A stretch of DNA of 64,000 nt from Zootoca vivipara (taxonomy: Eukaryota). Shown here piece after piece: positions 39,564-47,771 of the stretch. The position numbers and the translations under genes are program-made. The notes under the pieces are model-generated. The model ran no database searches. It worked only from the letters and a program-made list of their open reading frames with translations, and was not told where the DNA came from. Positions within the stretch are counted from its first letter, which is position 1. Every line of letters begins with the position of its first letter. The stretch covers positions 69,192,001 to 69,256,000 of the forward strand of contig NC_083280.1 of assembly GCF_963506605.1 (NCBI RefSeq). The letters run 5' to 3'.

Positions 39564-39699
39564 CAGGCATAGGCAAACTCGGCCCTCCAGATGTTTTGGG
39601 ACTACAACTCCCATGATCCCTAGCTAACAGGACCAGTGGTCAGGGATGGTGGGAATTGTAGTCCCAAAACATCTGGAGGGCCGAGTTTGCCTATACCTG
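39564..39699. mobile_element. 136-bp hAT-type MITE
   Basis: TIR caggcataggcaaactc; perfect TSD aagtaaac. Confidence 0.92.
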
Positions 39700-40784
39700 A
39701 AGTAAACAAATCTCCACTCAGCAAGAAGGGACAAATTGAAACCCACACCCTTCTTAGGTTTTGGAAAACAACTATTTTTGCCATATTAGACAGGCTGAGC
39801 CAATATTATCTGTTGCATCATGGGAACGAAATAAATGCAAGGAGTTGGGAGCTTTATATACTTTTTAATTTATTTGCTAGTGTAACATTTCCCACTTTGT
39901 AAATGTAATCTTTTATATGGATTAATTTGAATTTACTTGGTTATCAGTTATAGACCACCCCTTCACAGCTTATTGATTTACATCACTCAAAATATAAAAC
40001 CAATACAATAATAAAACACAAGGCAGAAGCCAGTAAGAAATGGATGATATGCAGTACTCCGCATACCTCCCTGCCTCTTTCCATGATGACCAGAAATGGG
40101 ATACATTATTCAAAATAAGCAAAAGGATGCAGAGTTGCATAACTGCGGCAGGGCACAGAATCTAACTTCTACCCTGCCCCAATAGAATCTGGGCCAATAT
40201 TGGCAAATAATATGATTTTTGAAATATTTATTATCCTATTTGCCTAGAATACACACAGCTTGAGCACATGCCTTCGAAGCTCCTCACAGGCCTGAGTCCA
40301 TATGCAAACACTTAAGCAGTCGGACGCCATCTGCCGAGTTCTGCAATGTGTAGGGCTGGAGGGGGTCATGATGTTTCCACTGTTGTAAACTCAGCGATGA
40401 ATGTGCGTAGAACATTTGGCAGACCCTCCCTTATGTTGTCTGCCACTTCTTTTCGCTTCTTTCCCCCTTTCACCACAGACACACTTAATAAGGCTTGACC
40501 CTGACCATCAGAACTGGGCCTTAATTTTAGATAAAAGGCAGGCTTTTAAAAGTAAATGGTTGTAGGTGTGCAACAAACATAGTTTCCAGGCAACTAACAG
40601 AACAATCCTATAGCCCTTGGAGAGGAGACAGAGTCCGTGGTAGAGGAAGAACTACTTCCAAAGCCCCGTTGGAAATTAAAAACAAGATCAATCCCATTTG
40701 TTTCTGTTGGGGTGGAAATTATCTACAACGGCTTGGTGGTATAGTTTTCATTTTTGTCACGGGTGTTTGTGCTGGGAATGGGAG

Positions 40785-41466: not shown

Positions 41467-42399
41467 TTCCATCAAGAGATTTCAAAGGAGGTTTTGAGCA
41501 GTCTCCCATTCACTCAAAGGTCCAGAGACACACCTGCTTAGCTTCAGCAAGGTTGTTATATATAGTTTGTTGTCAGAACACACCATGGGAATTTAGTGTC
41601 TGAAACTGTTTGGGAGCCATCTTAATTGCCACAGCATTTGTTCTTTTCCGTCAGATGCAAGGTAATAATTTGGACCATCTTTGTGGATTGTAAAGGGAAT
41701 AAAATCAAGTACTGGAAAACTGCATGGTAGAACTATCATTCTGTCCAGTGATCACTAACAAAAAAAAATGAGAGAACTCAAAATTACTTGAATTCCTACA
41801 AGGGGTTAGATACTTACTTGTGTGTCAAAATTGCTTTTATTTTATTGGGCACATTAATCTTACACTTGAGGAAAGTATCCAAGCTGGAAGAAATCAGATA
41901 TTAGTTCTGTAGCAGGAGATCAAGGGAACAATACTGTGTATGCCAAATTATCATACTTTAATGCTCATTGTTTTTTTTTTTTTTTGGCTTTCCTTCCTCT
42001 GGGTGGGTGTGCTGGATCAAAATTGATTTTTTAAAAAAGTAGAAAGCTTCACTTATATAAACATTTTCATTTAAAAATAATGTTGGTTAGATATGAAGTC
42101 TGAATTTAATGCAAACTTCTTATCTCCTAAAACTGAATTTAGGATTGTCTTCTAAACTTTCAGAAGGCTGCTTCTTATTGTAAAGAGAACTGTGGGGAGA
42201 ATATCTTAATAGCCCATGAAAGAATCAAAGAATTGTAGAATTGGAAGGGACCCCGAGGGTCTTCTAGTCCAACCCCCTGCAATGTAGGAATCTAAACTAG
42301 AACAGCCATGACAGATGGCCATCCAACCTCTGCTTAAAAACCTCCACCACCTTCTGAGGAAGTCCATTCCACTGTCAAAGAAGCTGTTGCTGTCAAGAA

Positions 42400-42615
42400 A
42401 CAGGTAGGTAGCCGTGTTGGTCTGAGTCGAGGCAAAATAAAAAATTTCCTTCAGTAGCACCTTAAAGACCAACTAAGTTTATATTTTGGTATGAGCTTTC
42501 GTGTGCATACTGAAGAAGTGGTATCTGAAGAAGTGTGTATGCACATGAAAGCTCATACCAAAATATAAACTTAGTTGGTCTTTAAGGTGCTACTGAAGGA
42601 AATTTTTTATTTTGC
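42400..42615. mobile_element. Penelope-like element remnant (inverted pseudo-LTRs)
   Basis: gtagccgtgttggtctg and gtagcaccttaaagaccaac motifs; 79-bp inverted arms 42432-42510 and 42537-42615 (1 mismatch); 13-bp direct repeat ttgctgtcaagaa at 42387-42399 and 42612-42624. Confidence 0.8.
42519..42560 (+). ncRNA. Minimal type-I hammerhead ribozyme motif
   Basis: UGGUAU-CUGAAGA-A-GUGUG(UAUG)CACAU-GAAA-GC-UC-AUACCA: stem I 6 bp, intact core, stem II 5 bp, palindromic AGCU helix III. Confidence 0.72.
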
Positions 42616-42732
42616 TGTCAAGAAGTTATTCCCAATGTTTAGTTGGACTCTCCTTTCTTGAATATGTGTGCCATGTATCTAAAAGTGTTTACATGCCTGT
42701 CTAAGAAACCGGAAAGTGCTGGTACTACATGT

Positions 42733-44156: not shown

Positions 44157-44289
44157 ATGGAATCCAACAGGGACGAGGCGGAGCGTTGTATCGCTATCGC
44201 GGTGGGCGCCATCAAGGCCGGCCAGGTCGAGAAGGCGCGTCGCTTCTTGGAGAAGGCGCAGCGCCTCTACCCGTCTCAGCGGGTCCGCG
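44157..44289 (+). CDS. DNAJB12: DNAJB12 coding exon 1 ([44 protein letters not shown])
   Basis: Kozak ATG, recognisable DNAJB12/14 N-terminus, G|gtgagc donor, 133 bp. Position next to MICU1 favours B12 over B14. Confidence 0.95.
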
Positions 44290-45754: not shown

Positions 45755-45890
45755 CAGGCATCCCCAAACTGTGGCCCTCCAGATGTTTTGGCCTACAACT
45801 CCCATGATCCTTAGCTAACAGGACCAGTGGTCAGGGATGATGGGAATTGTAGTCCAAAACATCTGGAGGGCCGAAGTTTGGGGATGCCTG
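45755..45890. mobile_element. 136-bp hAT-type MITE
   Basis: TIR caggcatccccaaact; perfect TSD atatagat. Confidence 0.92.
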
Positions 45891-46808: not shown

Positions 46809-46944
46809 CAGGTATCCCCAAACTTCGGCCCTCCAGATGTTTTGGACTACAATTCCCATCTTCCCCAATCACTGGTCCTGTTAGCTAGGGATCATGGGAG
46901 TTGTAGGCCAAAACATCTGGAGGGCCGCAGTTTGGGGGTGCCTG
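46809..46944. mobile_element. 136-bp hAT-type MITE
   Basis: Same family; flanked by a ttttaaaag direct repeat. Confidence 0.9.
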
Positions 46945-47688
46945 TTTTAAAAGTTTATTTTTAACCTATTTTTCCTTAATTAAAAATGGCTCGTTAGGGC
47001 TGGACGAGAACCAAACAAAAGGAAGGGTTTTTGATAAGGTGTCACTTATGTCTTCTGTAGTTTAAATGTATAATTAAGAAGAACTTACTAGATCACTTCA
47101 GTGGCCCATCTAGTCCAGTATCCTCTTCTCACAGTGGCCAACCAGTGCCTATGGGCACTGTAGATCAATCTGCGCAATTGCTTGCAATAACGTAGGCTTG
47201 CTGCAATAAGTGCTCATTTCCCCACTGCCGCCGCCGCCCAATTGTGAATCACCTCTTTAGGTTCATAATCCTTTACAATGTATTATTCATCCTCAGAGCT
47301 ACCCTGTGAAATGGGTCTTTTTAAAATCCCATTTGCTGATAGGGAACTCAAGGAAGGAGGCAGGGGCTTCCCTACAGCCATTAGGTCATCTGGTGTTTAA
47401 ACTGGGGAGAAGGGGCTGTCCAGAGTGCCAGTGACTCCTTTGGCTCGCCTATAAATGTTGACCAAACAAATTATTGTATCCACTCTCCAAATTTTGTTTT
47501 GTTTTGTTGTTTTGTTTTGCAAGATACAGAAGCTTACATTAGATTCAATACAAAACTTATTTGCACTTATCTATAAATACTTCCTTTATTTATGGCATTT
47601 ATAACCCACCTTTTCTTCCAAGGAGCTCATGGTGCATGCATGACTCTCCCCCTCCTCAGTTTGTCCCCACAACAACTTTGTGGGGTAG

Positions 47689-47771
47689 AAACAAAATAGC
47701 ACCTTAGAGACCAACTAAGTTTGTCATTGGTATGAGCTTTCATGTGCATGCACACTTCTTCAGATACACAC
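47689..47771 (-). mobile_element. Penelope-type pseudo-LTR fragment
   Basis: Homologous to the 42.4-kb arms; perfect 10-bp TSD tgtggggtag (47679-47688 and 47772-47781). Confidence 0.8.
47730..47767 (-). ncRNA. Minimal type-I hammerhead ribozyme motif (antisense to DNAJB12 intron 1)
   Basis: Reverse complement GUAU-CUGAAGA-A-GUGUG(CAUG)CACAU-GAAA-GC-UC-AUAC. Confidence 0.68.

Follow-up and report, generated by a model that had tools for sequence, protein, structure and literature searches.

The window (the whole stretch of DNA analysed here, 64,000 nucleotides) contains a 216-bp insertion between two genes that we take to be MICU1 and DNAJB12. The MICU1-like stop codon lies at ~16,010, 26 kb upstream of the insertion, and the ATG of the DNAJB12-like gene lies at 44157, 1.54 kb from it, in agreement with the position upstream of the DNAJB12 start given in the initial annotation. 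The features of the insertion and its host site are listed below; the parts of the hammerhead were read from the sequence, and element numbering takes the G at 42521 as +1.

42221..42671, minus strand: old LINE 3' fragment, split by the insertion
42387..42399: left copy of the 13-bp target-site duplication (13-bp overlap seen in empty paralogous sites)
42400..42431, minus strand: one-sided tail, 32 nt, between the left duplication and the palindrome
42400..42509, minus strand: tail-bearing arm, element +18 to +127, by comparison with unit L062
42510..42520, plus strand: junction insert, a second copy of element +5 to +15
42519-42560, plus strand: minimal type-I hammerhead (42521-42558 is native; at 42546 a U replaces C11.1)
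42519-42524, plus strand: stem I 5' strand, TGGTAT
42525-42531, plus strand: CTGAAGA box
42532, plus strand: extra A
42533-42537/42542-42546, plus strand: stem II
42547-42550, plus strand: GAAA box, followed by GC
42554, plus strand: TC cleavage site, with the predicted cut after this position
42555-42560, plus strand: stem I 3' strand, ATACCA
42521..42615, plus strand: tailless arm, element +1 to +95, beginning at the putative transcription start
42612..42624: target-site duplication, right copy

A 79-bp inverted repeat bounded by a 13-bp direct repeat had been described initially, and sequence comparison confirms both: the inverted repeat (42432-42510/42537-42615) extends over 79 nt with 99% complementarity, and the direct repeat (42387-42399/42612-42624) is identical at 13/13 positions. 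In the paralogous empty sites L117 and L299 the flanks are joined with a 13-bp overlap, and the direct repeat is thus a target-site duplication. Both flanks translate to adjoining parts of the C-terminus of a LINE ORF2. The host fragment is presumably CR1; the proposed insertion into such a fragment holds as far as an old LINE ORF2 end is concerned. A Pfam search with the translations of the LINE flanks gave no hit. The final 4 nt of the tailless arm are common to the duplication, and the tail is up to 36 nt long if the 4 nt common to the right duplication are target-derived. In the full unit the tail ends ~10 nt short of the ORF start. The hammerhead of the tail-bearing arm is incomplete and lacks the CUGANGA box. 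The junction insert supplies a G before +1 and two extra pairs of stem I. One substitution, C18>T, is private to the insertion and occurs in both arms, while C26>T, found in the plus arm only, turns the G10.1-C11.1 pair into G.U.

The letters of the hammerhead at 42519-42560, including its extra A, are as the initial annotation had them. Core boxes, NUH triplet, helices I and II and the palindromic 15.2-16.2 are all present in this motif, and its description as a Penelope-type minimal type-I hammerhead with an extra nucleotide and a palindromic helix III is upheld. The claim of a 6-bp stem I is correct only in part: the letters pair, but 4 bp are native, and 42519-42520, which supply the other two pairs, derive from the 11-nt junction insert. 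The 10.1-11.1 pair is G.U in this copy, as against G-C in 102 of 109 family arms. A minimal-hammerhead descriptor, one of the checks proposed at the outset, matched twice in the 64-kb window, both times in the same Penelope-like family, and gave 0 matches in 30/30 dinucleotide shuffles of the window. The proposed search with Rfam hammerhead models failed to support the motif, with no hammerhead match at E<=10; miRNA-hairpin matches from Rfam fell below gathering scores, reflect the long hairpin and were rejected. The isolated 42-mer folds into stems I and II with an unremarkable energy (z -1.56). A second family copy lies at ~47,690-47,770 on the minus strand, antisense within the first intron of the DNAJB12-like gene; it is solo and tailless, contains a complete hammerhead with a 4-bp stem, and is accompanied by an apparent duplication of ~10 bp.

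The same end sequence occurs in L062, a 3.0-kb tandem unit in which an ATG 10 nt past the tail opens an ORF. The hammerhead makes up the leading 38 nt of a leader of ~137 nt ahead of this ORF. A natural open frame at L284 matches RVT_1 and, C-terminally, GIY-YIG, both above cut-off, and its ORF contains a CX4CxxC linker. A CX2-5CxxC linker between RT and EN is described as common to Neptune and Nematis (PMC8557442), and by this motif, on which the clade is placed, the linker of the family is of the Neptune/Nematis type. All RT matches scored (150/150) were 100% identical to the query, 28 of them within 925-aa open frames, and the family is therefore young. It is also abundant: exact matches across the 1.44-Gb genome number 14,634 for the 25-nt tail motif and 32,109 for the mid segment, counts that leave out diverged copies, and exact arms occur at ~22 per Mb. 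The marks of EN+ PLEs, namely tandem or partial-tandem pLTR units, an inverted 5' copy and a one-sided tail, were all seen. On these sequence comparisons, what was inserted at the locus belongs to a young, autonomous family of Penelope-like elements (RT + GIY-YIG), and the Penelope classification proposed earlier stands, with RVT_1 and GIY-YIG carried by a parent ORF and the end sequence of the locus found again in L062. Elsewhere, L063 (G000:C1:2777325-2779741) consists of a five-unit, 598-bp tandem of the element end region with hammerheads facing the same way in four units; such a retrozyme-like array would permit dimeric cleavage.

The origin of the palindrome was studied in two sets of copies. 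Among the 30 best of 40 scored look-alikes, drawn from 1,496 candidates, the junction is different in every one, and 26/30 have duplications of 12-15 bp, all different. With junctions and duplications of their own, these look-alikes lead us to conclude that every insertion produces its palindrome afresh and that the palindrome is not a mobile unit. The second set comprised 121 arms, sampled by position within a single stretch that is possibly atypical, the opening 2.9 Mb of contig C1. Of these arms, 60 make up 30 inverted pairs, and in 29/30 pairs exactly one arm has a tail; the 30th has a tail that is decayed, by eye. The subfamily marker is the same on both arms in the 29 pairs read, 17 of which are identical over the compared stretch. 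Further 5' reach belongs to the tailless arm in 13 pairs and to the tailed arm in 10 (6 are tied or not separable within a 150-nt limit), so that neither arm is a simple copy of the other. Arm lengths vary without a break, the longest arms including whole ORFs. The presence of one tailed arm per pair is likely to arise from the priming of both cut target strands on a single RNA, and the one-sided pattern would fit two-strand priming at two fixed sites on that RNA. For the anole Poseidon, two RT starts that flank the tail and extension of both strands are described in vitro (PMC11167929). In several inverted pairs (G000:C5:47078812-47083918, C7:32046995-32050778 and others) both arms have long open frames, in a head-to-head arrangement on the kilobase scale, and at L082 telomere-like repeat letters occur at the joint between the two arms.

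The ends of arms were counted genome-wide as exact matches with a non-template base beside the matching downstream stretch. A non-template base occurs at +2 in 1,676/22,351 (G in 19 of the first 100), at +1 in 2,104/20,675, at -1 in 5,277/18,571 (28%) and at -2, for A/T only, in 892/13,294. The base at -1 is G in 3,517 cases (67%). Of 40 distinct upstream sequences, across subfamilies, 34 have a TATA-like motif that begins at -31, and in 4 others it begins at -30. In the sample of 121 arms, 28 end at -4 to +5, 9 at -5 to -39 and 47 extend further; none starts at +35. Among 30 sampled G-type copies, two consist of the duplication, a single untemplated G and position +1 (L079, L101), four share the G with the target, one is a long copy with a substitution, and the remainder have inserts or inverted arms; of 30 sampled A/C-type copies, four are long ones bearing a substitution. 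At the ribozyme cut site 366/20,319 arms end (1.8%), with true ends in 8/15 sampled, and the neighbouring positions gave 142/19,953 and 164/20,483. Direct genome-wide counting, with microhomology allowed for, thus revealed no clear peak of ends at the cut.

These counts suggest that +1 is likely the main transcription start of the element RNA. We infer that the G added at -1 is a copied cap; a cap-derived extra G at full-length 5' ends, together with twin priming, is described for L1 (PMC11702581). The extra G could instead be an untemplated addition at the template end, and in the copy at 42519-42560 it is also explained by G15 of the junction insert. A spliced-leader origin was rejected, since the upstream sequence differs among 30 sampled copies and one subfamily is without AG at the site; a 'GTG' ahead of the extra G was likewise dismissed as a query artefact that proved not to be general. 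RNA run X21 showed no pile-up of starts or ends on the family, and no RNA 5' end was seen in it. On balance we favour the reading that the short copies are complete cap-to-primer cDNAs of the mRNA leader, made from one RNA with two fixed starts, only uncut RNA being copied. If so, the short copies are not random 5' truncations, and reverse transcription starts just before the ORF; the hammerhead would begin at the first transcribed base, and its cut would decap the mRNA. In the parent RNA the hammerhead would be a passenger of the 5' end, able to remove the cap-bearing first 34 nt.

Within the family the stems of the hammerhead are invariant save for scattered decay (109 arms), and the variation common to several copies sits at N7, a free core position (A 90, C 13, T 6 of 109). 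Stem II variants number 214; of the first 100, three belong to an older family, and the other 97 come from the family itself, with small indels or with substitutions that no second change compensates. Of the stem covariation proposed as a check, none was found inside the family in either set (109 arms; first 100 of 214 variants), and two-sided changes appear only against the three older-family copies, which keep the core and differ on both sides of 3/9 pairs, a weak comparison of only 5 rows. The sequences suggest that the parent lineage is likely to maintain the hammerhead fold. Cleavage of the parent RNA would happen as a dimer or with protein help; for metazoan minimal hammerheads, weak cleavage and only as dimers is described in PMC4209133, and cleavage with protein in PMC11167929. 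An older and rare PLE-like family at L280, L281 and L282 has the same hammerhead core with different stems.

For the copy at the locus the outlook is different. The initial annotation expected the long hairpin to compete with the ribozyme fold, and in the predicted fold the hairpin indeed wins, by 29.7 kcal/mol in context, with pair probabilities of stems I and II that round to 0. In a plus-strand transcript of the locus the antisense arm is made first, and any such transcript would fold the ribozyme into the long hairpin. The hammerhead at 42519-42560 is predicted to be dead: trapped in the hairpin, with a decayed pair and a stem I that is part junction.

Reads over the unique flanks were not found in RNA run X21, of which ~6% was read, a test of low power in which DNAJB12 exon 1 had a depth of ~3. 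The suggestion that a MICU1 read-through transcript would contain the insertion is thus not borne out, given the stop codon 26 kb upstream and the lack of flank reads in this one run of low power. Family RNA reads of X21 that cover 42428-42609 run on into unlike flank in 96% of cases and hence come from other loci. They are ~3-4:1 antisense to the ribozyme and ORF, with the strand judged from the DNAJB12 exon 1 reads. The right junction is present in DNA run X5, from the same species in a separate study. In one contig of run X13, from a related species, matching stops exactly at 42612 and is followed by 37 other letters, which suggests an empty site, without the insertion, in that species.

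Our conclusion is that a young, autonomous Penelope-like element probably gave rise to the locus in a single insertion, likely dead by now and likely made by two-strand priming on one RNA. The endonuclease would make a staggered cut of the target with an offset of ~13 bp, and both cut strands would prime reverse transcription on one element RNA at sites ~32 nt apart. The left end would prime just ahead of the ORF start, giving the tailed arm, with a cDNA that halts at +18; the right end would prime at the T-tract and its cDNA would extend to +1, the capped 5' end, copy the cap as an extra base and re-prime briefly (+15 to +5) before being joined to the left-end cDNA. Alternatively, a single cDNA or antisense RNA might fold back and copy itself, its tip later being opened or trimmed unevenly; antisense-RNA snap-back has been proposed for rotifer PLEs (PMC3846280). 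Such self-priming would account for variants common to both arms, for pairs that join within the stem II palindrome and for the mostly antisense family RNA reads, and asymmetric trimming of the hairpin could mimic twin priming. It is nevertheless unlikely, because in 13/29 pairs the tailless arm has 5' sequence missing from the tailed arm, ends accumulate at +1 and bear an added G, which is what a capped sense template should give, and both strands were extended in vitro (PMC11167929).

The initial annotation saw here a short non-autonomous ribozyme element, and a retrozyme- or MITE-like unit, transcribed and moved as a whole palindrome, would be in keeping with the thousands of short palindromic copies of like size, with the 598-bp tandem of the end region at L063 and with the PLE-derived non-autonomous hammerhead elements described in 10.64898/2026.07.22.740005. 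We regard this as most improbable: no two of the 30 best look-alikes agree in their junction, arm lengths are continuous up to whole ORFs, and the copy is not a tandem repeat and is without an upstream TATA-like box. Its sequence is the end of the 3.0-kb ORF-bearing unit, and neither tandem HHR units nor copies of one structure, the marks of a retrozyme or a non-autonomous palindrome, were found among the look-alikes and the sampled arms. It is very unlikely, too, that DNAJB12 or MICU1 has recruited the copy for regulation in cis, through self-cleavage or dsRNA. A transcript across the insertion would form a 79-bp duplex, and the DNAJB12-like ATG is only 1.54 kb away, but at the density of exact arms given above such proximity is unremarkable; the unique flanks had no RNA reads (one run, low power), the core pair has decayed and the insertion is likely absent from the related species.

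Both the ribozyme and the insertion architecture are already published. With the metazoan PLE pLTR hammerheads described in PMC4209133, where minimal hammerheads are reported for Neptune PLEs and reptiles, the motif shares the CUGANGA and GAAA boxes, an unpaired nucleotide between 9 and 10.1, a short helix I, the palindromic 15.2-16.2 and, in the family, G10.1-C11.1; this copy departs from them in its G.U pair at 10.1-11.1, in a stem I that the junction has lengthened and in having an antisense arm upstream. Insertions of EN+ PLEs are described with an inverted 5'-truncated pLTR, a one-sided tail of 30-40 bp and a TSD (PMC8557442, PMC3846280), and the inverted arm, one-sided tail, duplication and TATA- and Inr-like pLTR motifs are alike here; the differences are that no ORF sequence is present and that the duplication is 12-15 bp rather than 8-10. 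The start-site end counts and the extra G are not part of the available accounts in PMC8557442 and PMC3846280. Two RT starts that flank the tail, with extension of both strands, are features in common with PAc, the Poseidon of Anolis carolinensis, and no RNA reads end at the HHR cut there, just as copies show no clear peak of ends at it here (PMC11167929). PAc belongs to another clade, however, and its ORF begins inside the HHR with RT starts within the ORF, whereas here neither HHR nor tail reaches the ORF, which starts downstream of both (PMC11167929). Twin priming of L1 likewise yields an inverted segment, a preserved duplication and an extra G at full-length 5' ends, but there the second primer acts at internal sites that vary, and the two arms are free of overlap, while here the starts are fixed and the same stretch is copied (PMC11702581). 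Non-LTR retrozymes are similar in being small, non-coding and PLE-derived with a type-I HHR, but are described as tandem repeats with at least 2 HHR units, in contrast to this single head-to-head insertion (10.64898/2026.07.22.740005). No report of a cap-derived G or of twin priming in PLEs was found in the literature searched, mostly outside subscription journals.

The insertion is thus real, but it is an ordinary one of the Penelope-like kind, and the hammerhead that it carries as a passenger is predicted to be dead. It is unimportant in itself: similar arms exist in the tens of thousands, and its ribozyme is predicted inactive. A young, abundant family is useful, however, for the question of where the inverted ends and one-sided tails of PLEs come from. 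Taken together, the family copies likely record the start of the element RNA, without trace of ribozyme cutting. Their footprints are countable (one tailed arm per pair, a sharp G-added end behind a TATA-like box, and no pile-up of ends at the cut site) and predict directly what CAGE, and the in vitro system that already exists, should show. The window also contains an element of ~130 bp with inverted ends, MITE-like in appearance, in three copies (39,565-39,700; 45,755-45,890; 46,810-46,945).
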